64,000 nucleotides of DNA from an uncultured Gemmatimonadaceae bacterium (GTDB lineage Bacteria > Gemmatimonadota > Gemmatimonadetes > Gemmatimonadales > Gemmatimonadaceae), in contig OY970320.1 of assembly GCA_963716745.1 (NCBI GenBank), positions 832,001 through 896,000 of the forward strand. The letters run 5' to 3'. Every line of letters starts with the position of its first letter. The first letter of the stretch is position 1. Position numbers and translations under genes: made by a program. Shown here piece after piece: positions 517-56,049 of the stretch. The notes below the pieces were generated by a model, which searched no databases, was not told the origin of the DNA, and worked only from the letters and a program-made list of their open reading frames with translations.

Positions 517-1185
517 ATGGCCGCCGCGTCGATCTATGCACGGGAACCACAGCAGGCCCGCAGCGCGGAGACGACGCGTCGGTTGATCGACGCGGCGCAG
601 GAACTCCTCGAGACCCAAAGCTTCGACGACACGTCCGTGACCGCGATCGCGGCGCGCGCCGGCGTCACCATCGGCGCCTTCTACGCGCGCTTCGGCGACA
701 AGGCCGGCCTGTTGCGCGTGCTCGAGGCGAATCTCCACGAGGCGTTCGAGACCCTCGCCGACGAGCAGACCGTCCCGCAGAAATGGACCGGCCGCGCGAT
801 CGAGCAGGCGCTGCGCGAGCATCACGAGACGCTCGTGCGCACCTATCGCTCGCAACGCGGCGCCGCGCGCGCGCTCCTGCTCAAGGCGCAGACCGACCCT
901 GCCCTGCGCAAGCGCATCGACCGCCTCAATCAGCGGAATCTGCCGCTCATCGCGAAGGCGCTCGCGAGTCATGCGAAGATCAGCCATCCCGAAGCCGAGC
1001 GTGCGCTGCAGTTCGCGCTCCTCGCCGTGCGCTCGGTGTGCCGCGAGGTGCTGCTCTTTCACCAAGAATGGCCGGGTGGTCGAAAACTTTCTGATGCCGT
1101 CCTGGTAGAAGAGCTTACGCGCATGGTGCTTGGATATCTGGGACTGAAGAGCGCGGGAAGCGGGAAGCGGGAAGCGCCGCGATGA
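517..1185 (+). CDS. TetR/AcrR family transcriptional regulator
   Basis: HTH motif 'TRRLIDAAQELL...FDDTSVTAIAARAGVTIGAFYARFGDKAGL'. Start moved to ATG 517. Confidence 0.92.
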   Translation: MAAASIYAREPQQARSAETTRRLIDAAQELLETQSFDDTSVTAIAARAGVTIGAFYARFGDKAGLLRVLEANLHEAFETLADEQTVPQKWTGRAIEQALREHHETLVRTYRSQRGAARALLLKAQTDPALRKRIDRLNQRNLPLIAKALASHAKISHPEAERALQFALLAVRSVCREVLLFHQEWPGGRKLSDAVLVEELTRMVLGYLGLKSAGSGKREAPR

Positions 1186-1264
1186 GCGCGAACCACTCGA
1201 CGATCCCGCGCGCAGTTCTCGCATCCCGCGGCGCTTCCCACTTCCCGCTTCCCGCGTGGTTCAG
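1144..1264. repeat. Palindromic element family A variant (GGGAAGC heptamers)
   Basis: cgcGGGAAGCx3...cttcccacttcccgcttcccgcg inverted arms. Overlaps the 3' end of TetR. Confidence 0.85.
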
Positions 1265-1270
1265 CTGCGT

Positions 1271-1723
1271 ATGAGGCCCTACGATGACGCCGGTGCGTTG
1301 ATCCGCGCCGGCTACGCCGTCCTCAGCGGCAAAGCCACCGAGCCGCGCGATTGGGCGGCGTTCCGCACGTACTACGCGCCGAATGCTCGGCTGGCGCCGG
1401 TGAATGTGAACGCCGATGGATCACCCAAGCTCGAGCTATTCAGCGTTGACGATTACATCACGAGCCGCACCGAGATCCTCGCGCGAACCGATTTCTACGA
1501 GATCGAGATCGCGCGAAAGGAATGGCGCACAGGGAACGTGTCGACGGTGCTGTCGGTGTACGAATCGCGGCGCACACCCGACGGGCCGGCGTTCCAGCGG
1601 GGAGTGAACTCCGTCCTACTCTTTCACGATGGGGCGCGGTGGTGGATAACTGCCATTACGTGGGACGGCGCCTACGCGGGGTCACTTCCCGATGCGCCGG
1701 TGCCGGAGCTCAAGCACACGTAG
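1271..1723 (+). CDS. NTF2-like fold hypothetical protein
   Basis: 'DFYEIEIARKEWRTGNVSTVLSVYESR...RGVNSVLLFHDGARWWITAITWD' pattern. Confidence 0.75.
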   Translation: MRPYDDAGALIRAGYAVLSGKATEPRDWAAFRTYYAPNARLAPVNVNADGSPKLELFSVDDYITSRTEILARTDFYEIEIARKEWRTGNVSTVLSVYESRRTPDGPAFQRGVNSVLLFHDGARWWITAITWDGAYAGSLPDAPVPELKHT

Positions 1724-1724
1724 G

Positions 1725-1835
1725 ACGCGGGACTCGGGGCTCGGGACTCGCCGCGGGACTCGCTAACGACGCATAGATCCATCGCGCCGTTCTCGCGTCC
1801 CTCGGCGAGTCCCGAGTCCCGAGTCCCGCGTAGTC
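1725..1835. repeat. Palindromic element family A (GGGACTC heptamers)
   Basis: acgcGGGACTCggggctcGGGACTCgccg...cggcGAGTCCCx3gcgtagtc, between convergent stop codons. Confidence 0.9.
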
Positions 1836-3522
1836 ATGGCCGTCCCGCCCATTCCATCACCGCGCGCTCCAATTCTGGCAGCGTCACGCTCGGATCGTCG
1901 AGCACCACGGCGTGGAAGCCTCTCAGATCGAACCTCGCCCCCATCGCGCGTTCCGCTCGCGAGCGCGCGCCGGTGATCGCCAGGTCCCCAATGCCGTAGG
2001 TCGCGAGCTGGCCGGGCGTTGCGGCATGACGGTCGGCGTATGAGCTCGCCTGCGCCATCGGGCGGCCCGCGACGGCCATCATCGTGTCGATCGCCTGCGC
2101 GCGAGTCCAGCCGCGCGCGTGCATGCCGATATCGGCTTGCAGTGCGATATAGACATCCAGCCGGTGGATCAGATAGCCAAGGCGCAGCAGCGGCGTGTCG
2201 AACAGTCCGGCCTCGTCGGCCAGCTGCTCCGAGTAGATCCCCCACCCTTCCAGATACGTGCCGCTCGAGAGGAATGCGGGCGCGCCGTTCGCGGCGCGCG
2301 CTTGCGCGGCGTACACATACTGGAAGTGATGCCCGGGATACCCCTCGTGCGACGCGCCGACGCCAATGTTCATGCGCGCGATGCCGCCCGGCTGATAGGC
2401 GTTCACGAAGAAGATGGCCGGCGACGATCCATCGCGCGGTGCGGGTGAATACTGCGCGGGCGCGGCCGCCGGCGCCTGTGCCTTGCCGATCGCGCGGATG
2501 ACGATCGGGGCGTCGGGGGTCTTCGCGAATTGCAGCGGGAGCAGCTTCCGCGCCCGGTCCAACATCGTGGTGTACGCCGCCAGGATCGAATCGGGGTCGT
2601 GCATCACGAGCGACGAGTCGGTGCGCGCGCGGCGGAGGATCTCACCCAGCGTGATGTTCGGACCGAACACGATCTTCCCCACCCGAAGGATCTCGTCGCC
2701 CACTTTCACGCGCTCGGTGACCGCGATCGCGTAAATGGAATCGAGATTCGGCTGGATGGTGGTCGCGCTCCAGACGATCGCCGAATAGCACTCGGCGCCG
2801 TGCGGAAGCGACGTGAGGCCGGGCTCGGCGCGCGCGGCAGCGAGATAGTCGCTCGCGAGATAGTCGCGGTAGCGATGCAGCGCCGGCGCCACGGAGTCGG
2901 CGATCGCGCGGCGCCAGGCGGCATCGAACGCGGCGTTCGTATCGCGCGCAATGGGACCCTGGAGAGCGCGCGCGCCCGAGTCGAGCATCGCATCGAGCTG
3001 CCCGATCACGCGCTGCACGTTGGCGCGCGGCGCCGTGTAGCCCGCGGCGACGCCCGCGCGCAGGTTCTCGAGCTGGCGCCGCACCGCCTCCGGCATCCGG
3101 TTCGCGCCGTTGAGCATGTGGTTGCGCGCGGCGGGAGCGCCGAGCGGCTGGTTCGCGATCGTGGCGGCGAACTGGGCCTGGAATCCGAAGAGCTGGTCGA
3201 CATTCCAGAGACGGAAGCGGCAGACCTGCTCCGCGCGGGCCGCGCCAACGAATCCGCGCACGGCGACGAGACGGGCCCGGAGCCGGCGGTCGCTCAGCGA
3301 AGCGGGATCGATCGCGGCCAACTGCGCATCCCACGTCGCGAGCGCCGCCGAATCGGCGGCGGTCTCAGCCGCGTTCGCGACTCCCCAGAACCCATTGCCC
3401 TCTTCGTTCTCGAACCGGGCGGCGATGCTCGAGTCGACCGCGGCGAGGGCGGCGTCCTGGGCGCTGAGCGCGACAGGTGCGATGAGCAGGAGCAGGGTCA
3501 GCGAGCGCATGAGGAGGGTCAT
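1834..3522 (-). CDS. DUF885 family secreted protein (metallopeptidase-like)
   Basis: Signal peptide; HEGYPGHHFQ, EGWGIYSE and PGQLATYGIG motifs. Confidence 0.9.
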   Translation of the reverse strand: MTLLMRSLTLLLLIAPVALSAQDAALAAVDSSIAARFENEEGNGFWGVANAAETAADSAALATWDAQLAAIDPASLSDRRLRARLVAVRGFVGAARAEQVCRFRLWNVDQLFGFQAQFAATIANQPLGAPAARNHMLNGANRMPEAVRRQLENLRAGVAAGYTAPRANVQRVIGQLDAMLDSGARALQGPIARDTNAAFDAAWRRAIADSVAPALHRYRDYLASDYLAAARAEPGLTSLPHGAECYSAIVWSATTIQPNLDSIYAIAVTERVKVGDEILRVGKIVFGPNITLGEILRRARTDSSLVMHDPDSILAAYTTMLDRARKLLPLQFAKTPDAPIVIRAIGKAQAPAAAPAQYSPAPRDGSSPAIFFVNAYQPGGIARMNIGVGASHEGYPGHHFQYVYAAQARAANGAPAFLSSGTYLEGWGIYSEQLADEAGLFDTPLLRLGYLIHRLDVYIALQADIGMHARGWTRAQAIDTMMAVAGRPMAQASSYADRHAATPGQLATYGIGDLAITGARSRAERAMGARFDLRGFHAVVLDDPSVTLPELERAVMEWAGRP

Positions 3523-3553
3523 GCGTGAATATAGTACTCAATGCTATCATTTT

Positions 3554-3668
3554 ACAAGCGCGGGACTCGGGGCTCGGGACTCGCCGCGGGATTCGAGAAC
3601 GGCGCGTGAATCAATCGCGCAGTATTCGCGTCCCGCGGCGAGTCCCGAGTCCCGAATCCCGCGTAGTT
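3554..3668. repeat. Palindromic element family A
   Basis: Same arms as 1725-1835. The right end GTAGTT overlaps the minus-strand TAA at 3667-3669. Confidence 0.9.
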
Positions 3669-4228
3669 AATGCGGCCAAAGCCAAACGAACGTCAGCCCC
3701 ACGATCAGCGAGTAGATGATCCCGTCGAACGTGCTCGTGAGCGTGATCCGCATCGACCGGCGATACCAGATCGTCAGCTGCCAGAGCGCGAGCACGTAGC
3801 CGGCGAACGCGACGATGAACGCCGAGTGGAAGATCAGCTTGCTCGTCGCCGCCCGGGCCCACTAGCGTGCCGGCAATGTGCGCCGCGAACAGCGCCACCA
3901 CGAGCTGATAGATGAACCACTGGCCGAGCAGCTTCCCCATGTTGTCCATCATGCCCTTGTAGACGGTCATGATCAGCACCGGACCACGCTCGGCCTTCGC
4001 CTTGAATTCCGGCGTCTTCATGTCCGCCATGCTGCCGGGGCGCGGCAGCATGTAATCGCCGGGCGCCAGGTTGAACGGACGCAGCGCATCCATGATCGCG
4101 TCCTGGTTGGGCAGCTGCGGGTAGTCGCCCTTATGCCAGGGCAGCACCATGTGGATCAGCGAGCTCGCGATGAACGCGAACACGGTGGAGACGATGATCG
4201 GGAGCCAGAGGGACATGATCGGGGTCAT
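3667..4228 (-). CDS. Conserved membrane protein (frameshift near 3845)
   Basis: Hydrophobic ORF 'LWLPIIVSTVFAFIASSLIHMVLPWHKGDY'. The C-terminus continues in another frame to ...WLWPH-TAA. Confidence 0.75.
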
Positions 4229-4348
4229 CAGCTACCTCGCAGGTTGAGCGTTCCTCGTGCGTCGTTCCTCGCACTGCGGCTATCGGTGTTTGTTCGGGAT
4301 GTGGCCGAGTGGCTATGATACTATAGTAGACCGGCCGAATTCGTCAAA

Positions 4349-4807
4349 TCAGCGCTTCCGCAGCTTGGACTTCGGGTTCAGCATGTGCTCGACGAAGACG
4401 TCCACCGGGATCGCTCCGATCGCCTCCTTGATGGACGGCAGGTCGAGGTCGTCCAGGGTTTTGAAGTGGATGCAGCACTTCCCCATGTTGAGCCGCTTCC
4501 CCGCCCGCTTGAATCCCTGCTGGAGCGTCTTGAGCGCCGGCTCGTGTCCGTACGCGCTCATCAGGTAGAGCGTCGCGTTCTTGTTATGCCCCGAGAGCGC
4601 GGCGTACAGGAGCGGCTTCCCGTTATAGGTCTTGGGACAGACCGAGAGCGGCACCGACCAGGCGATCATCCCCCATTCCATCATTTCTTTGTAGCCCTTC
4701 GGGATCGCCTTCTTCACGATCGCGCGGGCCGCAGACACGACCTTGCGGCGTTCGGGGGGCAGCTCCTTCAGATACGCGGCGGGGGAAGCGGCAGTGCTAC
4801 GGTCCAT
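4349..4807 (-). CDS. DUF1801 domain protein
   Basis: 'IPKGYKEMMEWGMIAWSVPL...YNGKPL.YAAL...LNMGKCCIHFK'. Confidence 0.85.
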   Translation of the reverse strand: MDRSTAASPAAYLKELPPERRKVVSAARAIVKKAIPKGYKEMMEWGMIAWSVPLSVCPKTYNGKPLLYAALSGHNKNATLYLMSAYGHEPALKTLQQGFKRAGKRLNMGKCCIHFKTLDDLDLPSIKEAIGAIPVDVFVEHMLNPKSKLRKR

Positions 4808-4816
4808 GAGCTGCCT

Positions 4817-4841
4817 CGGGGATCGGGAGTCGGGAGTCGTT
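4817..4841. repeat. Family A half/degenerate heptamer run
   Basis: cggggatcgggagtcgggagtcgtt. Confidence 0.55.
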
Positions 4842-4846
4842 AGCGC

Positions 4847-6152
4847 TCAGCCTGAATCACGCAGCGCGTCCGCCACCTCGCCGGCGAGCTGCCGGCGGCG
4901 CGCGGTGAGGCGGCCAATACTATCGCCCCGGAAAGTGCGCAACCAGAGCGCGCGCGTCCACTCCAACACGCCGTCCGCCAGCTCACCATAGCGAAGCGCG
5001 ATGTAGCCGGTGAGCGCCGCGACCGCGAATGCGGGCACGAGCCACACCCAACCGAACAGCACGCCGACCACGATCGACTCCGCGATCCACGCGCCCCCAA
5101 TGAACACGACGCCCGACAGCAATTTCACTGTGCCGAGCACGTCGTCGCTCTCGGCATTCCGCTCGGCGACGAGTCCCGCGAGACGGTACGGCACCCAGCC
5201 GAGGATCACGCCAATGTCGGCGAGCGGCAACAGCACGATCAGCTTCATGACGGCCCACGCAAACGTCGTGTATCGCACGGGCTCCAATTCGAGCGACCAC
5301 GGATCGCGCACGCCCATGCGCCGCAGCATGCGCGCATAATCGCGCGCGTCCCTGGCGATGCGGTCCACTCTCACCGGATCGTTCGCGCTCACGCGCCGGT
5401 ACGCATCGGCCAGCCGGTGCGCACGTCGGTGACGCGCTGCCGGATCCTGCGCGTCACCGTCGACGGCGGTCCACGCAGCCACGAGCGCCACACCCTCGAG
5501 GAGTTCGCGCGACTCGGCCTGCAGCACCACGTCGTCGAGGTGCTCGCGGATGACCTCGGTGAGTTCGTTCACGGCCGCGCGCTCGTCGCGCGCGATACTC
5601 GGCGAGCCGCGGCGCGACGGCGATCGGCTCGCCCACCACTAACAATACGCTGGAGCGGAAGGTCACCTTGTTGTCGAAGTGCAATCCGATCGGGATGACG
5701 ATCAGTCCGCGGTGCGACTCGGCCTCGGCCGAGAGCGCGATGCGCGCGGCGCCGGTCTTGAGCTCCCGCAGAGCAGGATCGGAGTGCGACGTGCCCTCCG
5801 GGAAGAGCGCGACCGCGCCATCGCGCGCGATCTCGGCGCGGCAGAGCGCGAAACTCTCTTCGTTGCGCGACGCGTCGCCGGAGCGATCGCCCGATTCATG
5901 CGCGCGATACACCGGGATCGTGCCGAACGCGCGCATGCCCGCGCGGCCGATCGGGTTGTCGAAGAAGGTGCTTTTCGCGAGGAATCGCACGGGCCGCCCG
6001 GTCGCGATGCGCACGACGATCGGATCGAGCAGGCCGTTCGGATGATTGACCACGAAGAGCACCGGACCCGCAGCGGGAAGGCGCTCGGCGTTCTCGACGG
6101 TGCGCGTTGGGTAGTAGAGGCGCACGAGCGCTTCGAAGAGGGCGGCGATCAT
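4847..6152 (-). CDS. PlsC-type phospholipid/glycerol acyltransferase with C-terminal membrane helices (frameshift near 5585)
   Basis: NHPNGLLD (HX4D), FLAK and FPEGTS motifs. Joins ORFs 5454-6152 and 4847-5572. Confidence 0.85.
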
Positions 6153-6154
6153 TG

Positions 6155-6269
6155 AACTACGCGGGACTCGGCACTCGGGACTCGCCGCGGGATTCGAGAA
6201 CGGCGCGCGCGCCCATCGCGCATTTCTCGCGCCCCGCGGCGAGTCCCGAGTCCCGAGTCCCGCGCACTT
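6155..6269. repeat. Palindromic element family A
   Basis: AACTACgcgggactc...gagtcccx3gcgcactt. Confidence 0.9.
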
Positions 6270-7611: not shown

Positions 7612-7793
7612 TGCAGTGATCAGTAAACAGTCCCTGAGTAACCGCCAGTCGACAGTCTACAGTCAACAGGTCACAGAAAACGGATCGCGATCTGGCGCGC
7701 CTCCGTTCTCCGAATCGTGATCCGCTTTCTGTTGGCTGTAGACTGTAGACTGTCGACTGGCAGTCACTCGAGGACTGTTTACTGTTGACTGCA
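7612..7793. repeat. Palindromic element family B (ACAGTC[A/T/G] heptamers)
   Basis: gccagtcgacagtctacagtcaacag...ctgtagactgtagactgtcgactggc. Homologous to 15828-16100 and 18699-18980. Confidence 0.9.
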
Positions 7794-10516: not shown

Positions 10517-10792
10517 AACAGCGTGAGTACCGAGTCGTGCGTGTTCGACCACCAACGGCGTGCGTGCCGAGTCGTGCGTCTTCGACCACCAACAGCGTGC
10601 GTACCGAGTCGTGCGTGTTCGACCACCAACAGCGTGCGTACTGAGTCGGGCGTGTACTCACGACTCGGTACTCCCGCCCTCAGTGGTCGAACACGCACGA
10701 CTCGGTACGCACGCCCTCAGTGGTCGAACACGCACGACTCGGTACGCACGCCCATAGTGGTCGAACACGCACGACTTGGCACTCACGCTGTC
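10517..10792. repeat. Palindromic element family G: inverted arrays of a 37-bp tandem unit
   Basis: Unit AAC(A/G)GCGTG(A/C)GTACCGAGTCGTGCGTGTTCGACCACC at 10517, 10554, 10591 and 10628 (partial), then about 3.5 reverse-complement copies. Confidence 0.92.
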
Positions 10793-12657: not shown

Positions 12658-12719
12658 AACAGCGGGCTGTCGGCTGTTGGCGGTCGCAGGCAACAGCCGA
12701 CAGCCGACAGTCCGCCGTT
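12658..12719. repeat. Palindromic element family C (GGCTGTC/GACAGCC heptamers)
   Basis: AACAGCgggctgtcggctgtt...aacagccgacagccgacagtccGCCGTT. Confidence 0.9.
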
Positions 12720-15827: not shown

Positions 15828-16100
15828 AACTGCTCACTTCATCACCAGGGCGCTTAAGGCTGCAGTAGACAGCAAACAGTCACGAGTGACTGCCAGTCTA
15901 CAGTCAACAGCTCACAGGTCACAGAAAACATCGCTTCGAGTGAACGGGGTCTCGAGATGCCGAACCAGCATCACGAGACCCCGTATTCGCACTTCACCGC
16001 TTTCTGTGACCTGTTGACTGTTGACTGTAGACTGGCAGTCACTCGTGACTGTTTGCTGTTGACTGCAATTCTAAGTGCACTGGTGATGACGTGCGTAGTT
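15828..16100. repeat. Palindromic element family B (273 bp)
   Basis: AACTGCtcacttcatcaccag...ctggtgatgacgtgcGTAGTT with about 100-bp arms and an internal hairpin. Confidence 0.93.
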
Positions 16101-18698: not shown

Positions 18699-18980
18699 AA
18701 CTGCTTACGGCCACTTCGCTACCAGGGCGCTTACGGCTGCAGTCAACAGCAAACAGTCACGAGTAACGGCCAGTCGACAGTCAACAGTCACAGGTCACAG
18801 AGCACGGTGCGGTGCGCCAGCGCGGGTCTCGCGATGCCGATTCGGCATCGCAGAACCGGCGTACGCGCAGTTTCACAAGTTTTCTGTGACCTGTTGACTG
18901 TTGACTGTAGACTGGCGGTCACTCGTGACTGTTTGCTGTTGACTGCAATTCTAAGCGCACTGGTGATGCAGTGAGTAGTT
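18699..18980. repeat. Palindromic element family B (282 bp)
   Basis: AACTGCttac...gtgaGTAGTT. Arms are near-identical to 15828-16100. Confidence 0.93.
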
Positions 18981-20692: not shown

Positions 20693-20754
20693 CACGGCGG
20701 ACTGTCGGCTGTCGGCTGTTGCCTGCGACAGTCGACAGTCGACAGTCCGCCGTT
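20693..20754. repeat. Palindromic element family C
   Basis: cacggcggactgtcggctgtcggctgtt...gacagtcgacagtcgacagtccGCCGTT. Confidence 0.9.
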
Positions 20755-22090: not shown

Positions 22091-22175
22091 CAGACCTAGA
22101 CGTTAGACCTAGACGTTAGAAGGCGGACGGCGTGAGAGTCTTCTAACGTCTAGGTCTAGCGTCTAGGTCTGCAGT
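22091..22175. repeat. Palindromic element family D (AGACCT-AGACGTT 13-mers)
   Basis: cagacctagacgttagacctagacgttagaag...cttctaacgtctaggtctagcgtctaggtctg. Confidence 0.9.
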
Positions 22176-23169: not shown

Positions 23170-24072
23170 ATGCCCGAACTTCCCAATGTCGAGATCTACG
23201 TAGAGGCGCTTCGCGCGCGCATCGTGGGCGGCGCGCTCGAGCAGCTCCGCATCGCGAATCCCTTCGTACTGCGATCGGTCGAGCCTTCTGTTTCGGACGC
23301 GGACGGGCGCATCGTGACCGGCGTCTCGCGAATGGGCAAGCGGATCGTGGTCGCGCTGGAGGGCGAGCGCTACGTCGTCATCCATCTCATGATCGCGGGG
23401 CGGCTGCGCTGGCGGCCGCGGGGCACGAAGGTGCCGAAGAAACGCGGGCTCGCTTCGTTCGAATTCCCGGCCGGGCTCATGCTGTTCACCGAAGAGGGAT
23501 CGCAGCGACGCGCTGCGCTCTGGTACGTGCACGGCGCTGCAGCGCTCGCGTCACATGACCCCGGCGGCATCGAGCCGCTCACCGCCACGCTCGCCGCGTT
23601 CACGGCGGCACTTATGCGCGAACGGCACACGCTCAAACGCACACTCACGGATCCGCATATCTTCGCCGGGATCGGCAACGCGTATTCGGATGAGATCCTG
23701 CACGCCGCGCAGCTGTCGCCGCTCCAGCTGAGCACGAACCTGAAGCCCGCCGAGGTCGTCCGACTCTATCAAGCGACGCAACGCACACTCACGACGTGGA
23801 CCGACCGCCTGCGCGCCGAGCTCGCCGGCGCGTTCCCCGAGAAAGTGACCGCGTTCCGAGAAGGGATGGCCGTGCACGGCCGCTACAAACTCCCCTGCCC
23901 CGTATGCGGCTCGCCGGTGCAGCGCATTCGCTACGCTGAGAACGAGGTGAATTATTGTGCGACGTGTCAGACGGGGGGGCGTGTGCTGGCGGATCGGGGA
24001 TTGTCGCGGCTATTGAAGGAGGATTGGCCGAGATCGTTGGAGGACTGGGAAGAACGGCTGGGAACGGCCTAA
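23170..24072 (+). CDS. Fpg/Nei family DNA glycosylase/AP lyase
   Basis: N-terminal MPELP, H2TH 'AGIGNAYSDEILH', zinc finger CPVC...CATC. Confidence 0.93.
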   Translation: MPELPNVEIYVEALRARIVGGALEQLRIANPFVLRSVEPSVSDADGRIVTGVSRMGKRIVVALEGERYVVIHLMIAGRLRWRPRGTKVPKKRGLASFEFPAGLMLFTEEGSQRRAALWYVHGAAALASHDPGGIEPLTATLAAFTAALMRERHTLKRTLTDPHIFAGIGNAYSDEILHAAQLSPLQLSTNLKPAEVVRLYQATQRTLTTWTDRLRAELAGAFPEKVTAFREGMAVHGRYKLPCPVCGSPVQRIRYAENEVNYCATCQTGGRVLADRGLSRLLKEDWPRSLEDWEERLGTA

Positions 24073-24152
24073 CTGCAGACTGTCGGCTGTCGGCTGTCGC
24101 ATGCCGCGGCCGCGCAGTGTAGGCGACAGCCGACAGTCGACAGCCTGCCGTT
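24071..24152. repeat. Palindromic element family C
   Basis: AACTGCagactgtcggctgtcggctgtcgc...gcgacagccgacagtcgacagcctGCCGTT. The AAC overlaps the fpg TAA. Confidence 0.9.
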
Positions 24153-24642: not shown

Positions 24643-25719
24643 AGGCGCGCGCGCTGATCGCCGCGATCATGCTCGCCGGCGTGTCGAGTGTGACCGTGGC
24701 ACAGGCTCCAGCGGCCGCCGTCGGCAAGGAGGGCGATTTCGAGACGGCGGATTTCCATTTCCGCAGTGGCGAAGTGCTGCCGGTCATGCGTTTGCATTAC
24801 ATCACCTTCGGTGCGCCGCGGCGCGACGCGAAGGGCACGGTCATCAATGCGGTGATGATCCTGCACGGCACGACAGGCAGCGGCCGGCAATTCCTGTCGC
24901 CACAGTTCGCCGGCGTGCTGTATGGGCCGGGGCAGCTGCTCGACACGTCGCGCTACTACGTGATCCTCCCCGATGGGATCGGACATGGGAAGTCGAGCAA
25001 GCCGAGCGATGGGCTGCACGCGAAGTTCCCGCACTACGACTACGACGACATGGTGGCGGCGCAGCACTTGCTGCTAGTGAATGGATTGAAGGTGAGCCAC
25101 CTGCGGCTCATCATGGGAACGTCCATGGGGTGCATGCACGCGTGGATGTGGGGCGAGACGTATCCCGATTTCACGGACGCGCTCATGCCGCTCGCGTGCA
25201 ACGTGGTGGCGATCGCGGGGCGCAATCGCGTGGTGCGCGAGATGGCGGTCGAGGCAATCGTGAAGGATCCAGCGTGGAACAACGGCGACTACACGACGCA
25301 GCCACCTGGCCTGGTCGCTGCAGTGGACATGCTGATCCTCATGACGAGCGCGCCGTTGTACTGGCAGAAGCAGTACCCCACGCTCGCGGCCGCCGACTCG
25401 TTCTACGCGCGGAATCTCGCGACGCGTCTCGCGGCGAATGACGCGAACGACTTCGTGTACGCCTTCCAGGCGTCGCGGAACTACGATCCGTCGCCGAACC
25501 TCGAGAAGGTGCGCGTACCCGTGATGCACGTGAACTCGGCGGACGACTTCGTGAATCCACCGGAGCTTGGGACTCATGGAAGTGCTGATCAAGCGCGTGC
25601 CGAAGGGGAAATTCGTGTTGTTGCCCGTGAGCGATGCGACGCGGGGGCATGGGACGCATACGCTGCCGGCGGTTTGGGGGGCTTATCTTGCGGAGCTCAT
25701 GAAGAGCTCTGAGCCGTAA
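24639..25719 (+). CDS. Alpha/beta hydrolase, homoserine O-acetyltransferase (MetX)-like, secreted (frameshift near 25572)
   Basis: HGTTGSG, GTSMG nucleophile elbow, NSADD; the shifted frame gives RGHGTHT...SSEP-TAA. Confidence 0.85.
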
Positions 25720-25825
25720 CTGCAGACTGAGACGTTAGACTTAGACGTTAGACTGCAACTGCGAACTTCGCGCGCCGCGTGTAGTCGCTTTCTAACGTCT
25801 AGGTCTAACGTCTAAGTCTGCAGTC
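25718..25825. repeat. Palindromic element family D
   Basis: AACTGCagactgagacgttagacttagacgttaga...tctaacgtctaggtctaacgtctaagtctGCAGTC. The AAC overlaps TAA. Confidence 0.9.
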
Positions 25826-25843
25826 CCGACTCGAACCCCTGAC

Positions 25844-27082: not shown

Positions 27083-27086
27083 CAAC

Positions 27087-27176
27087 AACTGCTCTGACAG
27101 GATGCACATGATTGCCCTGATGAATGCACGGTCGTGCGTTCATCAGGGCAATCATGTGCATCCTGTCAAAGCAGTT
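27087..27176. repeat. Palindromic element family E (9-mer period)
   Basis: AACTGCtctgacaggatgcacatgattgccctgatg...catcagggcaatcatgtgcatcctgtcaaaGCAGTT, a near-perfect stem of about 43 bp. Confidence 0.92.
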
Positions 27177-27185
27177 GTACGGAAA

Positions 27186-31963: not shown

Positions 31964-32089
31964 AACGGCCGGGAACCGGTTACCGGGAACCGGTGTGGCA
32001 TGAAAAAACATGGCATACGACTGCGCGCAATGTCGTATGCCATGTGTTGTCATGCATCACCGGTTCCCGGTAACCGGTTCCCGGCTGTT
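31964..32089. repeat. Palindromic element family F (14-mer GGGAACCGGTTACC)
   Basis: AACGGCcgggaaccggttaccgggaaccggtg...caccggttcccggtaaccggttcccgGCTGTT. Confidence 0.92.
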
Positions 32090-34855: not shown

Positions 34856-34981
34856 AACGACCGGGAACCGATTGCCGGGAACCGGTGATGCATGAAAACA
34901 CATGGCATACGACATCGCGCGATGTCGTATGCCATGTGTTGTTATGCCATACCGGTTCCCGGTAATCGGTTCCCGGCGGTT
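34856..34981. repeat. Palindromic element family F
   Basis: AACGACcgggaaccgattgcc...ggtaatcggttcccgGCGGTT, followed by a second GCAGTT that overlaps a TAA. Confidence 0.92.
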
Positions 34982-38271: not shown

Positions 38272-38299
38272 TCCGAACTCCCAAGGAATCGGTGAATAG

Positions 38300-38436
38300 A
38301 ACCGCTAGAGGCGGGGTTAGTACCGCTGACGGCGTGTGTGGCCATAGCGTTGGGCACGGCGGCCTCCATGGAGGTTGCCGTTCCCAACGCCAAAGCTAAC
38401 GCGCCGTTAGCGGTACCAACCCCGCCGTCAGCGGTT
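38300..38436. repeat. Palindromic element family H (TAGTACCGCT core)
   Basis: AACCGCtagaggcggggttagtaccgctgacggcg...cgccgttagcggtaccaaccccgccgtcaGCGGTT. Confidence 0.85.
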
Positions 38437-38542
38437 CCACCGCGCCGCTATGGTCTCCGTACGTCAAATGTAGGCCCCGCGTTGCAATGCGAGTGATCTC
38501 CCTACATACTCTCCCACCACCATTCTACGCCGAGAACGTGCA

Positions 38543-39346: not shown

Positions 39347-39435
39347 AACTGCTTTGACAGGATGAACATGATGGGCATGATGACTGCATTCGAACGCAGT
39401 CATCATGCCCATCATGTTCATCCTGTCAAGCAGTT
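39347..39435. repeat. Palindromic element family E
   Basis: AACTGCtttgacaggatgaacatgatgggcatgatg...catcatgcccatcatgttcatcctgtcaaGCAGTT. Confidence 0.92.
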
Positions 39436-42154: not shown

Positions 42155-42334
42155 GGCGCGTCTAGGCCTTAGTACCGCTGGAAAGGCGCGTCTGGCAACT
42201 GAGCGTATAGTACGGCATGGCGTGAGTGGTGGAGTGCGTGGAACCTACTCACGCCGAGCAGTACCATACGCTCAGTTGCCAGACGCGCCGTTTCAGCGGT
42301 ACTAGGGCCCACACGCGCTATTACAGCGGTACTA
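42155..42334. repeat. Palindromic element family H
   Basis: tagtaccgctggaaaggcgcgtctggcaactgagcgtat...atacgctcagttgccagacgcgccgtttcagcggtacta, plus an extra cagcggtactag overlapping the cyclophilin stop. Confidence 0.85.
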
Positions 42335-46056: not shown

Positions 46057-46287
46057 AACGGCGTGAGTACCGAGTCGTGCGTGTTCGACCACTGACGGCG
46101 TGAGTACTGAGTCGTGCGTGTTCGACCACAAACTTCGTGAGTACCAAGTCGTGCGTAACTCGGCACTCACGTACTCAGTGGTCGAAGACGCACGACTCGG
46201 TACTCACGCACTCAGTGGTCGAACACGCACGACTCGGCACTCACGCACTCAGTGGTCGAACACGCACGACTCGGTACTCACGCCGTT
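46057..46287. repeat. Palindromic element family G (37-bp units)
   Basis: AACGGCgtgagtaccgagtcgtgcgtgttcgaccac...gtggtcgaacacgcacgactcggtactcacGCCGTT; second copy of 10517-10792. Confidence 0.92.
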
Positions 46288-49019: not shown

Positions 49020-49927
49020 CTAATGGTGACATTGCGCTCCCACCGCCCCATTAAGCGCCGCTACCACTCGATCTGTGAGATCGAAATTCGCGAATGCCGT
49101 GAACGAATCCTCGATCATGTTCCCCGCGACATTGCTGAGCTGTTGCGGCAGCGGATCCAGATGCAGCGCGCCAATGCGCCAGATCTGATGCACCTGGCCC
49201 ATGCTGCCGATCTTGCACTGCTCGAGATCGAGCACGGGATCGAAGTGCAATTCGTAGCGCACATTGTCGGCGCCTCCGCTCACGCCCACGGCGCCGCTGA
49301 AATGACAGGGCTGCATCACGTCGCTCGGATCGGGGCGGAAGCGCAGACTGAATGCGTTCATCGCGACATGCGCAACGGTAAAGGTCAGCACGAGGCCATC
49401 ACCAGCCACGCGCAGATCGGGATCGGGAACGGTCAGTGAGAATTCGCCGGCGTTCACCTTCACTCCGAGGCAGCTGCTGACCATGTACTTGTGGCCGGCC
49501 AGCAGCGAAGTCTGGATCTCGAATCCCTTGAGCGTCATTCACGGCCGCCTTGATGTAGTCGCCGATCTTCGGATCATCTCTGAGCCGCTCGTGCCTGCCC
49601 ATGCGTGTGCGGCGGACTCGCCATGAAGCCGCGGGGCTGCGGCACGACATGCGGATCGGTCTGTCCGTGCGCATTCTCGCTGTCCGCCGACTGGACGCCG
49701 CGAATCGCGCCCATCGTTGTCCCATCAGTAGGCGTGACGTTGGTGTTGACCTTCATCGCGTCGAACGACGGGGTGCTGCCCGTCGCGGTCGTGGTCGGAT
49801 GACTTCCCGTCTTCGGGGCGGGAGCCGGTGCCGCGGGCTTGGCCGTTCCCTGCGCGAGTGCCATGAGCGGCGCCAGCGCAAAGGAGACGAGCAATGCAAG
49901 ACGTGGCGGGATCCGGGAGAGTGTCAT
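49020..49927 (-). CDS. Secreted hypothetical protein (probably one gene with two frameshifts near 49595 and 49538)
   Basis: Signal peptide ...ALAQ, low-complexity linker, Cys-containing C-terminal domain. Could instead be two genes. Confidence 0.6.
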
Positions 49928-49943
49928 TGGCTCGATCCTTGAG

Positions 49944-51353: not shown

Positions 51354-51952
51354 GAGCACACGCACGTCCAGCTGTAGGTGGCGTCCGACCCGTCGGGGTT
51401 CTTCCCGGAGGTGGTCATCGTCGCGAGCGGCACACACGTGTGGCCGCCCTGCGGGAACGTGCTCGCGGCCACGGCATTGCAGCCGGCGATGTGTGCGTCG
51501 TACTCGATCTGCGGCGGACCCACCTTCATCCCGGTGGGACCGATCTTCGTGATCACTCCGCAGCACGCCGTGACGCCGTTCACCGACACCCTGCCGTGCG
51601 CGTTCGCCCAGATCTGCTGGCCAACGTGCAGCGTCGCCGCTCCCTTCTGCGCGTCGATCGGCCCGAAGCCCAATGCCGGCTGCAGCTTCGCTCCATCCAC
51701 GGGACCAAGGCCATCCACGGGGCCGACGCCGAGCTTGGGGTCGAACCAGCCGAACATGAAGTGAAAGGTGGCGCCGGTCGCGATCACCTTCGCGGTGACG
51801 ACGCCGGTGCGCGCATCCACGGACACGACGTCGCAACATGCCAAAGGCTTGAGCGCGCCCGTCTTCTGCGGGATCTGCGCACCGGCGAGCGACGCCGCGC
51901 TCACTGCAGCGCAAGCCAAGAGCGATCCGATCACGATACGAGTGCATGTCAT
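51350..51952 (-). CDS. Secreted Cys-rich hypothetical protein with GP(V/I)D(G/A) repeats
   Basis: RBS GGAGG, signal peptide, two CC pairs, C-terminal CxC. Confidence 0.75.
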   Translation of the reverse strand: MTCTRIVIGSLLACAAVSAASLAGAQIPQKTGALKPLACCDVVSVDARTGVVTAKVIATGATFHFMFGWFDPKLGVGPVDGLGPVDGAKLQPALGFGPIDAQKGAATLHVGQQIWANAHGRVSVNGVTACCGVITKIGPTGMKVGPPQIEYDAHIAGCNAVAASTFPQGGHTCVPLATMTTSGKNPDGSDATYSWTCVCS

Positions 51953-52028
51953 GGTGGCCTTCCTCCAATGAGTGGCGGGTCATACGTTCGTTCTGCGCGA
52001 AACAGTCTTCCCTCCCGCCTGTATCTCT

Positions 52029-52622
52029 ATGTCGCCGACCGGCCGGGACCGTTACACGCAGGATCGGCCGCCCGGCGCGGAACTCCCCGCCGAACAGGAG
52101 CTCGTCGAGCGCTTCTGGGGTCGCGTGTGCGTGATGGCAGCGCGGCGGCTGCGCGACCCCGCCGCGGCTCAGGATGTGGCGCAGGAAACTCTCCGCCGCG
52201 TGGTGGACGCCATGCGCGCCGGGCGCATCGAGAATCCCGCGGCGCTGCCGGCCTTCGTGTTCCAGACAGCACGCCACATCTGCCTGCATTCGTACCGCTC
52301 CGAAGGGCGCGAGGAACGCGCACTCACGCGGATGAATGCCGAGGGCGACACGCCGGACGACATTCCGAATGCGCTCGGCGCGCTCATTTCCGCGGAGGAC
52401 CGGCTGGCCGTGCGCGGAGCTATGGCGCAACTCACCGAACCGGAGCGTGCGCTGCTCACGATGCTTTACTTCGACGGCCGCGCCACCGACGCCGTTGCCG
52501 CGACACTACAGATCACGCCCGGTGCTCTGCGGGTGAGAAAACACCGCGCGCTCGCCCACCTCGCTGAGCTCATGGGACGCGAAGTGGATGTGAAACGCTC
52601 ACCGCCCATCGGGAACCTATAG
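52029..52622 (+). CDS. ECF RNA polymerase sigma factor
   Basis: 'AAQDVAQETL...LPAFVFQTARHI'; region 4 'LQITPGALRVRKHRAL'. Confidence 0.9.
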   Translation: MSPTGRDRYTQDRPPGAELPAEQELVERFWGRVCVMAARRLRDPAAAQDVAQETLRRVVDAMRAGRIENPAALPAFVFQTARHICLHSYRSEGREERALTRMNAEGDTPDDIPNALGALISAEDRLAVRGAMAQLTEPERALLTMLYFDGRATDAVAATLQITPGALRVRKHRALAHLAELMGREVDVKRSPPIGNL

Positions 52623-52624
52623 TC

Positions 52625-53227
52625 ATGGCCGATACCCCTCTCACCTGCGAGATCGTCGACCGCGACGATATCGACCAGCGCTATCTCGCCGGCACGCTGT
52701 CGCCGGACGAAGCCGACGCCTTCGAGGAGCATTTCTTCGGATGCGAGCGCTGCTGGGCATTGGTGCAGCGCGGACTCGCGGTGCGCGCGGCAGGGAATGT
52801 GGGCATGCCCGTCGCGAACGCTCGACGCGCCCCGCGGCCCCAATGGTGGATCGGGCTCGCGGCAGCCGGCGTGCTCGCGGCATCAGTGGCGCTCTGGTAT
52901 TCATCCCGCGGGCGTGCGTTCGATGGCGGGGACGCCGCGCGCGGCTCAGCGGTGGCGATCGGTGCGTCGGCCCTCGTGCGCGGTGATTCGGTGATCGTTG
53001 CCTGGCATCGCGTGGCCGACGCGAGCGACTATCGTGTGCGGATATCGGCCCCGGACGGATCGCCGCTGCTCGAGCGGGTGGTGAGCGATTCCTCGCTCAC
53101 GATCCCCCGCACCGCGCTCGACGGAGCCTCGCCTGAATCGGCATTCGTCAGTGTGATGGCGCGCGATGCCCTCGCGCACCCGCTCGCGCAATCCGCGCTC
53201 ACGCCGCTCGCGCTGCCACGCCGCTGA
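52625..53227 (+). CDS. zf-HC2 transmembrane anti-sigma factor
   Basis: 'YLAGTLS...FEEHFFGCERC', TM helix, extracytoplasmic beta-rich domain. Confidence 0.88.
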   Translation: MADTPLTCEIVDRDDIDQRYLAGTLSPDEADAFEEHFFGCERCWALVQRGLAVRAAGNVGMPVANARRAPRPQWWIGLAAAGVLAASVALWYSSRGRAFDGGDAARGSAVAIGASALVRGDSVIVAWHRVADASDYRVRISAPDGSPLLERVVSDSSLTIPRTALDGASPESAFVSVMARDALAHPLAQSALTPLALPRR

Positions 53228-55953
53228 ACGCGCGCCGTTCTCTCATCGCGGGCGCGCTGTTGGTGCTCTCGGCGTGCGTCGACCGCGCGCCGAGGCCACC
53301 CACGCCGCTCGACCTCGCCTTCCAAGTCGCGGATAGCCTGCGCCTCGAGGGGCGCTTTGCGCAGGCAGCGCCGATCCTGTTGGCCCTGCGTGATTCGCTC
53401 GCGGTGGCCGGCGACACCGCCGGTGTTTGGCGGGCTGACCTTTGGCTGGCCGACGCGCTCATCGGCGTCCGTCAAATGGACAGCGCGCGAACCGAACTCG
53501 CGGCGGCGTTTGCCCTGGCCGGCGCTGATGCCGATCGGGAGGCTTGGATAAGGAACGAGCGCAGCCTGTTGCTCGACCGCCTCGGCAAGTTCGATTCGGC
53601 CACCGCCGAAGCGATGCATGCACGCGAGCTGGCACGCATCGCACATGACTCGATGCTCGAGGCGAAGACGTTCAACGAGACCGCCCGCATCCAGTCGCTC
53701 ACCGGTCACTATCGCGAGGCGATCGCCGACAACCTGCAGGCGCTCGCCATCGATTCTGCCCTCGCGGGACGCGCCGTGCGCGACATGGCGATCGAATGGA
53801 ATGAGTTGGGGATCGGCTATCGTCACCTCGGCCGTTTCACCGATGCCGAGCAAATGCTCGTTCAGGCGCTCGTTCTCGAGCGGGCCCGGCGGAACCCGGA
53901 AGGCATCGCGCGAGCGTCGTTCAATCTCGCGAACGTCTATGTCGCGACCGGCGATGACCGCCGCGCCCTCCCGCTCATGCTCGAGTCGCTTCACACCGTG
54001 GAACCCACCGGCAATGCGCGCGGTGAGATCTTCGTGCGCACGGATCTCGCTGAGCTCTATACGCGCGCGGCTCGTTACTCCGAGGCACGCAAGCACATCG
54101 TGAAAGCGCTCGCGCTGAACAACGGTGCGTTCGCGTATTCGCGCGTGGAACTCCTGGGCGCACTCGCGCGGTTGGAGCTCGCCGAGCGGCGGCCATCGCT
54201 CGCGACGATCCTGCTGGACTCTGCGGTGCGCACCGCCGATTCGTTGGGATACGGCCGGCAGCGCGCGTCAGGACGCGCATCGCTCGCGCGCGCGGCGATA
54301 GCGCTCGGCGAACCCGGTCGCGCGGCGCGATCAGGATCCTCCGCCGTGAGGATCGCCGATTCGCTGGACGATCCCGAAGCGCAAGTCGAGGCCCGAGAGG
54401 CGTACGGTGCGGCGCTCGAGGCGGCGGGGCGCTCGAGCGCGTTGGACGAGTATCGGCGGCACGATCGCGCTCCTCGAGTCGTGGCGCGGACGCGTCGCGC
54501 TCGGCGATCTGCGTATGGGAGTCGCGCAGCCGCGGCTCGGCGCGTACGAAGGGGCGATCCGACTGCTGGTTCGTGAGGGCCGTGCAGGTGATGCCTTCGA
54601 CGTCGCCGAACAGGCGCGAGCGAGGCTGCTGCTGGATCTGATGCGCGATCGTGGCGACGGCCCTTCGCGTTCGCGAGATGAAGCGATCCGGCGCCGGTTG
54701 CGTGAGCGAGGCGACGTACGAGGCGATGCGGAGCCGGCACAGCGCGCCGCGATCGACCGCGAGATCGCCGCGCTCGTCGATTCGATCGGCGGCGGCGCGC
54801 GCGACCCTGACGTGCGCGGCGCGATCGCACGCGACCCGGCGCCGCTCCCGATCCATGACATCCAGGCACGGCTCCTCTCGAAGGACCGCGCAATGCTCGT
54901 GGTGTTCTGGGGCGATCAGGATGTGTACGGCTGGTGGATCACCGCCACATCCGTGCGTGCCGCGCGTCTTGGCCCCGCGGATTCGTTGGCGATGATGGTC
55001 GAGTTCCTGCGCACCGCGGTGGAGGACACAACGGGGCGCGTGCCGTGGAAACCGGCCGCGCGGCGGATGTTCGCCACGATCATCGCGCCGCTCGCCCCCG
55101 ATGCTTCCGCCGAAGTGCTCGTGATCACTGACGGCCCGCTCGCGAACGTTCCGGCCGAAGTATTCCTGCCGCCGGGAGACAGCCTCCCGTGGGGCGCGAC
55201 GCGGCGCATCGGGTACGGTCCCTCGGCGTCGGTGCTCGCGACGTTCATGTCCTCCTCCCGAACGCCCCGCTGGGATCGCGCGATCCTCGCGGTAGGGAAT
55301 CCCGCGCCATCGCCGGGTCGCGCGAGCGCGGGACCGGCCGGCGAACGCGACGGCGCGCGCGCGCCTCTCCCGTACGCGGCGGTCGAGGCACGTGAAATCG
55401 CGACACTGTTCGCCGCCGGCACGAGGGATGTGCTCACCGGCCGAGACGCCACGCTCACGCGATGGCGCGCGCTGGATCCTTCGCGCTATCGCTACCTGCA
55501 TTTCGCAGCGCACACGTCGCTCGTCGGCCGCCGGACGGGCGCGTCCGCTGTGATGCTCGCCGACAGCGCCCTCGATCTCCCGGCGATCCGCGCCCTCGAT
55601 CTGACCGCCGAACTGGTGACGTTGTCAGCGTGCGAGACCGCGTTGGGCGATCGCGTGCGCGGCGAGGGAGTCCTCGGACTTTCGCACGCGTTCCTGTCCG
55701 CCGGTGCGCGCGGCACCGTGGTCACGCTCTGGCCGATCCGCGACCGCTCGGCCGCGGATTTCATGACCGCGTTCTATCGCGCATTGAGCGCCGGCGCGGC
55801 GCCATCGGCGGCACTGCTCACCGTACGGCGCGCGTGGATCGCCGCGGCGGTGCGCGCGCGCAACCGGCGAGATGGGCGCCTTATGTGCTCATCGGAGGAG
55901 CTGCGGCGCACGTGAAACTGAACGGCCGGGAGCCGATTGCCGGGAGCCGATGA
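53224..55953 (+). CDS. TPR-CHAT (caspase/HetF-like) protease, predicted lipoprotein (frameshifts near 54460 and 55848)
   Basis: TPR helices; CHAT motifs DGPL, LPYAAVEA, HFAAH, LSACETALG, TLWPI.D, WAPYVLIG. CTG start overlaps the upstream TGA. Confidence 0.88.
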
Positions 55954-56049
55954 GGCATGACAACACATTCCTATAACGACTTCGCGCAGTGTCGTGATGG
56001 AATTTGTTGTCATGCCACATCGGCTCCCGGCAATCGGCTCCCGGCCGTT
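55921..56049. repeat. Palindromic element family F (variant GGGAGCCGATTGCC)
   Basis: AACGGCcgggagccgattgccgggagccgatg...catcggctcccggcaatcggctcccgGCCGTT. Confidence 0.92.

Follow-up and report, generated by a model that had tools for sequence, protein, structure and literature searches.

The window analyzed here, 64,000 nucleotides of the genome of an uncultured Gemmatimonadaceae bacterium (contig OY970320.1, positions 832,001 to 896,000), contains intergenic hairpins that are the gene-less form of small gene-bearing palindromes, in which the loop holds a gene for a four-helix-bundle protein or for a GxxExxY nuclease. Most of the hairpin families share the same letters at the outer ends of the stem, AAC on the left and GTT on the right, and we refer to this shared end as the foot. 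The explanation that we favor, with a probability of about one half, is that these hairpins are cassettes of the type of the ribosomal RNA intervening sequences (IVS), that they reside in fixed slots in which their interiors are renewed by copying, and that the foot is their functional end.

The genome under study (G000) is a single contig of 3.29 Mb with 67% G+C and 89.8% completeness, and the window corresponds to its positions C1:832001-896000. Five other genomes of the same genus (six in all) were used for comparison, among them G002, G004 and G005. G002 is the sister species (63% complete; 1.58 Mb compared) and G005 is more distant, with approximately 80% identity to G000 (83% complete; 0.88 Mb compared); slot comparisons among G000, G002 and G005 do not polarize gains and losses. 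The sequencing data listed as containing this DNA were contig sets from soil and rhizosphere, in small shares, with none from RNA.

Window hairpins are gene-less forms of gene-bearing palindromes

In the window, a palindrome finder set to arms of 18 nt or more recovered 27 inverted repeats that do not overlap, in agreement with the roughly 27 elements in 64 kb reported in a first-pass annotation made from the letters of the sequence. With arms of at least 22 nt there are 25, of which 22 belong to multi-copy families (Table 1) and three are single and partly intragenic (216-552, 33117-33327 and 62789-62880). Eight tested elements fold as single long hairpins (z of -5.7 to -17.9), with none of 200 shuffles folding equally well, and no Rfam family reached its gathering score anywhere in the window. 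The whole G000 genome contains 431 palindromes, which BLAST clustering sorted into 11 large families (68, 51, 43, 36, 29, 25, 23, 23, 21, 15 and 12 copies), four pairs and 77 singletons; the large families are numbered 0 to 10, and the family of 51 was split into sub-families 1a and 1b. The families are located in intergenic DNA and their elements are dispersed along the entire chromosome. Palindrome density peaks at 800-1000 kb, a region that includes the window, with 36 and 38 palindromes per 100 kb compared to 4-22 in other bins, and this hot spot coincides with neither GC-skew extreme (approximately 290 kb and 1890 kb).

The window elements are gene-less copies only. In G000 as a whole, profile searches yielded seven matches to PF05635 (23S_rRNA_IVP) and three to PF13366 (PDDEXK_3); the three PF13366 matches fall at two loci, of which one is broken. 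Six of the seven PF05635 genes and the intact one of the two PF13366 loci lie inside the loop of a palindrome, which measures 480-641 bp, and the arms around these seven cargo genes belong to a different family each (2, 0, 1a, 4, 5, 8 and 1b). The five other congeneric genomes repeat this arrangement at 25 of 26 PF05635 loci (spans of 517-1075 bp); in G002 and G004 a cargo gene is flanked by a family 7-like arm, and family-1b arms accompany three to four of the ten PF13366 loci of the genus. No gene-bearing copy of families 3, 6 or 9 was seen in G000. The arms are built from tandem units, which are heptamers or, in some families, units of 13 to 37 bases; heptamer repeats are also known from cyanobacteria as short tandemly repeated repetitive (STRR) sequences. 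The arms of gene-less family-2 elements (approximately 58 nt) match those that flank the family-2 cargo gene. Longer copies enclosing an open reading frame (ORF), a possibility raised in the first-pass annotation, therefore exist, and their gene encodes a four-helix-bundle protein or a GxxExxY nuclease.

The family-2 cassette encodes a protein with matches to TIGR02436, "four helix bundle protein" (E 2.9e-34), and to the structure PDB 2GSC, which is XCC0516 of Xanthomonas campestris (E 7.8e-22), and the cassette nuclease matches TIGR04256, "GxxExxY", the gene for which is found in all six genomes of the genus. On a protein tree, 18 canonical four-helix-bundle rows of the genus group together with one other (support of 90 in the Shimodaira-Hasegawa-like approximate likelihood-ratio test, SH-aLRT), and the sub-groups of the proteins parallel the heptamer classes of the arms (CGGGAxx 9 rows, GACTG 4, CAGTC 3). 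The first-pass annotation had described the families as unrelated, which no longer holds, as gene-bearing forms with one or the other loop gene link them and the canonical four-helix-bundle proteins form nearly one group. This near-single grouping, taken together with the gene-bearing forms, points to the radiation of an IVS-type hairpin cassette.

A second, very divergent clade of four-helix-bundle proteins was also seen, at G000 1008029-1008175 and 3095125-3095280 and at nine loci in G002, G004 and G005. Its members match only the middle of PF05635 (E of approximately 1e-13), stand on a branch of length 3.8 in the protein tree, and accompany the arm families with long units (22 to 37 nt, each unit containing the word RACGGCG).

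Gene-in-hairpin cassettes as a general kind are not new and are partly in print. In a sample of the phylum, PF05635 is present at E of at most 1e-20 in 86 of 151 genomes (a tally that counts one unpublished genome, G079, the sequence of which was left out of the analysis), and inverted arms (score of at least 14), nearly all of them built from heptamers, occur at 26 of 28 inspected loci. The elements of this genus have the attributes of an IVS-type cassette, that is, a cargo gene within a long inverted repeat, arms of short tandem units, and gene-less copies that share those arms. The arms themselves are more local: outside G000, the family-2 arm was found in four of five congeneric genomes and in 0 of 25 from other genera, and matches to its core number 87, 76, 34, 16, 3 and 0 across the six congeneric genomes (approximately two per element, both strands counted).

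The AAC/GTT foot is independent of interior and cargo

AAC is the commonest outer triplet of the palindromes (42 of 431). In order to score the ends, the foot was defined as AACN[GA]C on the left and G[CT]NGTT on the right (AACNRC...GYNGTT) and was sought in a zone of -20 to +12 around each palindrome end, where its genome-wide frequency gives a chance expectation of 4.6% per zone; the same motif in reversed orientation served as the control. Among the 334 elements of families 0-9, the foot is found at 160 left and 162 right ends, with 113 elements carrying it at both, or approximately 48% of ends, and the control finds it in the same zones at 19 left and 16 right ends (approximately 5%). The common terminal signature proposed from the window thus extends through the genome. 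In the window, 13 of the 22 family elements have the foot on the left and 12 on the right, ten at both ends and five at one end only, and all 11 copies that the first-pass annotation had listed as bounded by AAC and GTT begin with AACN[GA]C and end with G[CT]NGTT.

Conservation of AAC was measured on ends anchored at the family cores, so that AAC is taken at a fixed distance from the core. The three letters A/A/C are present at 75/94/90% in family 2 (84 anchored ends), 68/76/76% in family 1a (38 ends), 60/95/90% in family 7 (40 ends), 69/87/69% in family 5 (33 ends) and 82/78/58% in family 8 (41 ends). In family 1b the core is preceded by AACTGCTTT (32 ends), family 0 has the motif at roughly half of its 133 ends, the terminal unit GAACCGC of family 3 is a variant of its inner unit GGTACCGC, and in family 4 the motif stands on an outer extension only and not next to the core. 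Within the 84 ends of family 2 the core is 100% conserved, the position N is free (T41 G26 A23 C8), R is divided (G61 A38) and the base preceding AAC is unconserved; 5' of AAC there is no conservation except a weak echo seven bases outward, which reflects a doubled terminal unit. The base after AACNR is C in every foot-bearing family. Between the two ends of the 113 elements with both feet, N pairs in 65 and R in 85.

The foot is also kept between species. Of the AAC positions at 95 orthologous ends retained in both G000 and G002, 273 of 285 are identical, compared to 80 of 95 for N and 866 of 950 for the flank from -1 to -10, and the arms are approximately 95% identical; two-proportion arithmetic gives z of approximately 2.5 for AAC against flank and approximately 3.8 for AAC against N. 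A smaller set of only 19 orthologous pairs gave 107 of 114 for AAC and 343 of 380 for the flank. No target duplications were detected as direct repeats outside the ends of the 113 elements, with none at k=3 (control 3), one at k=4 (control 1) and none at k=5-8; at k=2 there were 11 (control 7).

Gene-bearing copies carry the foot as well. Of the 35 such copies within the genus, 17 have it on the left and 15 on the right (control 2 and 2), and in gene-bearing copies from other genera it is present at one left and two right ends of 26 (control 2 and 4), so the AAC/GTT foot is specific to this genus. It bounds cassettes with three types of cargo, namely the canonical four-helix-bundle protein, the very divergent four-helix-bundle clade and the unrelated GxxExxY nuclease. 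The foot is, in total, far above chance and independent of both the interior and the cargo gene. A search of a limited body of literature, in the main texts of papers, found nothing on the AAC/GTT end or on dispersed families of gene-less S23p hairpins.

Slots are conserved between species and interiors switch

The window aligns collinearly with G002 at 88-93% identity, and each of its 22 family elements has a counterpart there. Across the 1.58 Mb compared, 176 G000 elements have both flanks mapped in G002, and 173 of these slots are occupied; the two elements are at least 85% identical in 85 slots, 70-85% identical in 37 and less than 70% identical in 51, and in three slots the element is absent or much changed. 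Mean identity over the 176 slots is 75.9% for the element compared to 92.6% for its flanks. In G005, 45 of 49 slots are occupied. The first-pass annotation had set against a mobile system the prospect of elements fixed at orthologous places as ordinary terminators; the positions are indeed orthologous, and the elements at them are neither static nor canonical terminators.

Several slots document the change of interior directly. At the slots of window positions 1725 and 3559, the arms are of the type GGGACTC in G000 but GGGAAGC in G002, and in G005 the first slot has GGGACGC arms and the second a GGGGCGC/GGGACGC variant; the change is concerted, affecting every unit in both arms, and the loops are still recognizably orthologous. 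At window position 46057, three different families occupy the slot in the three species, with AAC[GT]GCG as the left end in each. At G000 679804, a family-7 hairpin of G000 stands opposite a family-1a hairpin of G002, both with the outer GCCGTT, and many family-3 slots of G000 are occupied in G002 by a related family with 21-nt units. In single cases (elements 86, 102 and 47), identity continues through the foot and then breaks. The four neighboring family-0 hairpins at window positions 1144-6269 have mostly one heptamer type per species (ACT in G000, AAG in G002 and ACG in G005), which suggests local homogenization among neighbors.

Clean pairs of a filled and an empty site are rare between G000 and G002, as most size differences are partial deletions, changes in the number of arm units or replacements, and exact insertion boundaries could therefore not be fixed. 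Three G000 slots appear empty in G005, one of which keeps a one-arm remnant of another family. The two that are truly empty hold a mini-palindrome with foot-like ends: the slot at window position 31964 contains a 10-mer that matches AACNRYNGTT at nine of ten places, and the other contains CTGAC-GAA-GTCAG where G000 has CTGAAC...GTTCAG around a family-0 element. Of the empty sites and target duplications that the first-pass annotation had hoped for in relatives, a few empty sites were thus found, and target duplications were not.

Some differences near slots involve other DNA. Beside three G002 hairpins (L091:12814-13563, L247:8524-9006 and L247:12887-13336) lie extra segments of approximately 850 bp that contain unrelated small ORFs, with no transposase seen on inspection by eye; one of these ORFs resembles a MazF/PemK-type toxin of a toxin-antitoxin pair. 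Opposite G000 955962-955973, contig C3 of G002 has a 473-bp insert with a flanking direct repeat of approximately 25 bp (AAGTCCCGCGCGCC...) and no palindrome.

Proposed renewal of cassette interiors within fixed slots

In the explanation that we favor, the palindromes are gene-less copies of IVS-type hairpin cassettes whose arms are inverted arrays of tandem units, and the full-length cassettes of 480-750 bp carry in the loop a gene for a four-helix-bundle protein (S23p/TIGR02436) or for a GxxExxY nuclease of the PD-(D/E)XK type. The cassette has radiated within the genus into at least 11 arm families, seven to eight of which retain the stem foot, and it would sit in a largely fixed set of intergenic slots, with convergent spacers the most often occupied. 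Spread to new slots would be rare and renewal frequent, with the resident interior being overwritten by a copy of another cassette from the same or a different subfamily or family, and the foot would persist as the functional end on which this renewal depends. As most families share the letters of the stem foot, it may be the site of cassette recognition and swapping. We propose that hairpins with an intact foot are those that get renewed, and that intact hairpins carry the foot for this reason. The factor that would recognize the foot could be the cassette-borne GxxExxY nuclease, the four-helix-bundle proteins or a genus-specific host factor.

Several observations weigh against this explanation. 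No enzyme that acts on the foot was identified. Families 6, 9 and 10 and half of family 0 have no foot and are nevertheless intact palindromes. Over 55 pooled ends of replaced slots, 62% of positions are identical in the flank from -1 to -10, 56% in AAC and 53% from +6 to +12, without a sharp boundary at the foot; as the pooled identity falls already outside the foot, either replacement often extends over the foot into the adjacent few bases or alignment quality is low in this zone, and the idea that exchange ends at the foot rests on the single cases described above. The empty site at G000 1160681, which holds family 9 in G002, has no foot, and the hairpin at G002 C20 852081 faces an unrelated 23-nt filler in the other genome. 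In addition, the near-single grouping of the canonical four-helix-bundle proteins means that the families have the foot in common partly through plain descent from an ancestral outer unit. The first-pass annotation had attributed the spread or recombination of diverse elements to one trans-acting enzyme that reads their ends; the shared end and the exchange of interiors at fixed sites support that proposal in part, and its enzyme is the part for which nothing was found.

Alternative explanations

The alternative that survives best, although we consider it unlikely, extends this last point to the whole of the foot. One ancestral cassette would have had AACNGCN as its outermost unit, the inner units would have diverged by slippage and arm-to-arm correction, and the foot would be a functionless fossil. 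This fits with the grouping of the 18 canonical rows with just one outsider and with the agreement between protein sub-groups and heptamer classes, and the terminal unit is at times tandemly doubled in the way that heptamers are, with RACNGYN-like heptamers serving as arm units elsewhere. Simple inheritance does not readily account for a foot that also bounds the distant four-helix-bundle clade and the unrelated GxxExxY cargo, or for its retention at slots whose interior has switched family. Moreover, a fossil would be expected to decay equally at all positions, and AAC is conserved with adjacent positions free.

A more doubtful alternative is that the foot belongs to the slot and not to the cassette. 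Cassettes with the ends C...G would have the short palindrome AACNR|YNGTT as their target, inserting at its middle, or would insert at the tip of a pre-existing minor hairpin, as IVS do on the helix tips of rRNA. The C that follows AACNR in all foot-bearing families would then be the first base of the cassette, and the variation of N and R despite an invariant core, their frequent lack of pairing between the two ends and the absence of target duplications are all consistent with such a target. The two empty G005 slots can be read in the same way, and by our own arithmetic a nine-of-ten match to AACNRYNGTT would occur by chance in approximately 0.7% of cases in a 22-nt spacer. A mini-palindrome could equally be the footprint of an excision, however, and free targets are hardly in excess: AACNR(0-14)YNGTT sites outside elements in intergenic DNA number 200 compared to 154 in the reversed control, which is not a clear enrichment, and exact 6-mer AAC...GTT pairs, which would be free short hairpins, are at expectation. 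The foot of family 1b is contiguous with strongly conserved sequence of the element, the foot often changes too in replaced slots, and the empty site at G000 1160681 lacks it.

We regard as quite unlikely a further mechanism, in which the foot would be the cutting site of a structure-specific nuclease acting on an extruded cruciform, with cut-and-paste of interiors between docking feet. Both strands would be cut at the foot in the manner of a resolvase, which would free the interior as a hairpin-ended piece, and the feet would then either join, leaving the mini-palindromes of the empty slots, or accept another interior, giving rise to family switching. GxxExxY would be the candidate enzyme and the four-helix-bundle proteins would be binders of the arms. 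If this were true, cut-and-paste of palindrome interiors would represent a previously undescribed type of mobile DNA.

It is improbable that the hairpins are primarily devices of the host, such as terminators or stabilizers of mRNA 3' ends, with the foot serving that role, for example as an RNase III site at the base of the stem. Their location invites the idea. By crude gene calls, on which the location statistics rest, an element is present in 26% of convergent spacers (94 of 360), 8% of tandem spacers (175 of 2193) and 13% of divergent spacers (46 of 360), and 16 more elements fall inside called genes of G000; many window element ends lie 4-9 nt from a stop codon; and the positions are conserved between species. 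RNase III does cut the Coxiella IVS out near the base of its stem, according to the available text of PMC4990558. Against a host role, the pooled profile of ends has no enrichment of T-runs or A-runs next to the elements, the 46 elements in divergent spacers are on the promoter side of genes, and stems of 60-280 bp are far beyond the length of a terminator. The gene-bearing forms and the differences in copy number between species (87 to 0 core matches for family 2) mark the elements as a selfish repeat, and a host role leaves the family switching of interiors unexplained.

Two known types of mobile system are highly improbable as explanations. Diverse interiors between AAC and GTT bounds, and some gene-sized differences between species that end at hairpins, recall the attC sites of integrons, on which a tyrosine recombinase acts. 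The only full-length tyrosine recombinases in G000, however, are XerD (354 bits, above its cut-off) and a XerC-like protein, which score 138 and 107.5 bits with the integrase model TIGR02249 against a cut-off of 265; no RYYY precedes AAC, the genes are on both strands and the elements are found chromosome-wide. Equally improbable are repetitive extragenic palindromes (REP) or the hairpins formed from them (REPIN), moved by a REP-associated tyrosine transposase (RAYT), and miniatures of IS200/IS605-type insertion sequences moved by a Y1 HUH transposase. Such a system would suit hairpin repeats that lie between genes, leave no target duplications and have sequences tied, family by family, to one small gene each, but G000 (89.8% complete) has no match to PF01797, for which a control search was positive in six of 14 known genomes, the linked genes are four-helix-bundle or GxxExxY genes and not HUH genes, and the ends are AACNRC and not of the GTAG type. 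The earlier judgment that the elements are neither classic REPs nor an integron is accordingly confirmed, given the lack of a Y1 transposase and the presence of only XerD/XerC-like recombinases below the integrase cut-off.

Four other candidates were rejected. A miniature inverted-repeat transposable element (MITE) of a DDE transposon is contradicted by the absence of target duplications in the 113 elements and by longer copies that encode four-helix-bundle or GxxExxY proteins and no transposase, and an intrinsic terminator by ends without a T-run, stems of 60-280 bp and the 46 elements in divergent spacers. A retroelement-dependent system, similar to a diversity-generating retroelement (DGR) with its Avd protein, finds no PF00078 match in G000, and the family-2 cassette protein scores only 21.9 bits with the DGR Avd model NF033474 (cut-off 80). 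A strict 23S rRNA intervening sequence, which would sit in helix 25 or 45 of that gene and be cut out by RNase III, is rejected as the single 23S gene of G000 measures 2959 nt against a model of 2925 positions and has no insert. A family-1a hairpin does lie at G000 234506-234582, approximately 290 bp behind this gene (231259-234217).

Comparison with known systems

The closest relatives in print are the ORF-bearing IVS of 23S rRNA in Leptospira and Coxiella burnetii and those with Xanthomonas-type S23p. Warrier et al. (2016, PMC4990558, available text) describe the IVS of C. burnetii as selfish, 428 nt long and located in helix 45 of 23S rRNA, with an S23p ORF, tandem GACAGAT heptamers that vary in number and excision by RNase III, and they treat its derivation from a transposon remnant or a mobile element as still a hypothesis. 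As far as the available sources go, these IVS and the present elements share a four-helix-bundle ORF of the same protein family (TIGR02436, PDB 2GSC) in the loop of a long stem with heptamer arms, and both are suspected of being selfish or mobile with no mechanism known. Unlike the rRNA IVS, the present elements lie outside rRNA, in hundreds between protein genes, are mostly gene-less and form at least 11 arm families with a genus-specific AAC/GTT foot, and some of them carry a GxxExxY nuclease.

G-rich intergenic tandem heptamers have been reported from Xanthomonas (GGGAATC) and Nostoc (GGGGAYT), those of Xanthomonas often as convergent inverted pairs (70-75 cases), near the upstream ORF and with positions conserved between species (Rehm et al. 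2015, PMC4692102, available text). Both sets resemble the present elements in being intergenic and tandem, often in convergent inverted pairs, at conserved positions, but they are treated there as simple sequence repeats or quadruplex formers, and the available text of PMC4692102 describes no link to cargo, no families and no shared end.

Integron attC sites are likewise hairpins with diverse interiors and AAC...GTT ends. In the present elements, by contrast, AAC is outermost and leads into NRC instead of closing an RYYYAAC box on the inner side, and there is no IntI, no array and no single orientation. REPIN-RAYT systems are populations of hairpin repeats tied to one cognate small gene that is flanked by its own repeats, and they hold orthologous intergenic places for long periods without target duplications. 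The present elements are similar in these respects, but there is no HUH/Y1 transposase here, the arms are tandem repeats and not one short REP, and the cognate genes encode PD-(D/E)XK nucleases or a four-helix bundle with no known DNA breaking or joining activity.

To our knowledge, rRNA intervening sequences, S23p four-helix-bundle proteins, GxxExxY nucleases and bacterial heptamer repeats have each been without a mechanism for decades. New here are a genus-specific foot, cassettes without target duplications, old slots with fast interiors, and empty slots with foot-like sequence. With approximately 330 cassettes in at least 11 families and six genomes at graded distances, the genus is a natural experiment, in which fixed slots with switching interiors and a short, mutable shared foot make the reading of the hairpin, its copying and the role of the small proteins testable. 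Should the foot prove to act in recognition, it would mark the functional end of a class of selfish DNA that is widespread and has not been catalogued.

Elements and neighboring genes of the window

Table 1. Family hairpins of the window (window coordinates), with their arms, ends and state in related genomes.
Position	Family	Arms	Ends	Remarks
1144..1264	0	GGGAAGC heptamers	CTGAAG...GGTTCAG, motif at right end only	orthologous copy in G002 and G005
1725..1831	0	GGGACTC	no AAC/GTT foot	GGGAAGC arms in G002, GGGACGC in G005
3559..3663	0	GGGACTC		GGGAAGC arms in G002
6155..6269	0		AACTAC at left end	
7612..7793	4	ACAGTCA-type heptamers		
10518..10791	5	37-nt units, word RACGGCG in each		
12658..12719	1a	GGCTGTC	AACAGC...GCCGTT	stop codon 5 nt before
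15828..16100	4		outer extension to AACTGC...GTAGTT	with 18699-18980, brackets a 2.6-kb segment absent in G005
18699..18980	4		AACTGC...GTAGTT	
20694..20753	1a		ACGGCG...CGCCGTT	
22091..22171	7	AGACCT/AGACGTT 13-nt units		
24071..24152	1a		AACTGC...GCCGTT	found in G002 and G005
25711..25832	7		AACTGC at left	
27085..27178	1b	GACAGGAT-type	AACTGC...GCAGTT	fills the gap between two convergent stop codons
28540..28622	1b-like			left edge of a 1.5-kb segment missing from G002
31964..32089	2	CCGGGAA/CCGATTG 14-nt units	AACGGC...GCTGTT	empty slot in G005 with 10-mer, 9/10 match to AACNRYNGTT
34856..34981	2		AACGAC...GCGGTT	
38299..38437	3	units of about 22 nt	GAACCGC...GCGGTTC	
39347..39435	1b		AACTGC...GCAGTT	
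42156..42318	8	long units		
46057..46287	5		AACGGC...GCCGTT	other families in G002 and G005, left end AAC[GT]GCG in each
55918..56052	2		CTGAACGGC...GCCGTTCAG	right edge of a 7-kb segment missing from G002

Three gene-sized differences between species were observed in the window. The 1.5-kb segment at 28610-30164, with a gene for a PQQ/BamB-like beta-propeller protein (28697-30097), is replaced by 25 bp in the collinear G002 contig, and the 7-kb multi-gene segment at 48902-55916 by 134 bp in G002. The 2.6-kb gene segment at 16067-18735 lies between two family-4 hairpins in direct order, of which G005 keeps one copy only, and this difference looks like a deletion or insertion through recombination between the two family-4 copies.

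The remaining genes of the window encode Ser/Thr kinases with PD40 repeats, a duplicated MacB/FtsX permease, sortilin/BNR proteins and a giant GH94 protein, and the closest named relatives of one window protein are metagenome-assembled genomes of Gemmatimonadota, at 72% identity. The GH94-family gene (57709-63999, minus strand) continues past the end of the window and encodes more than 2089 aa, with a catalytic domain, a glucoamylase domain and two supersandwich domains; the product resembles a cyclic beta-1,2-glucan synthase or phosphorylase.

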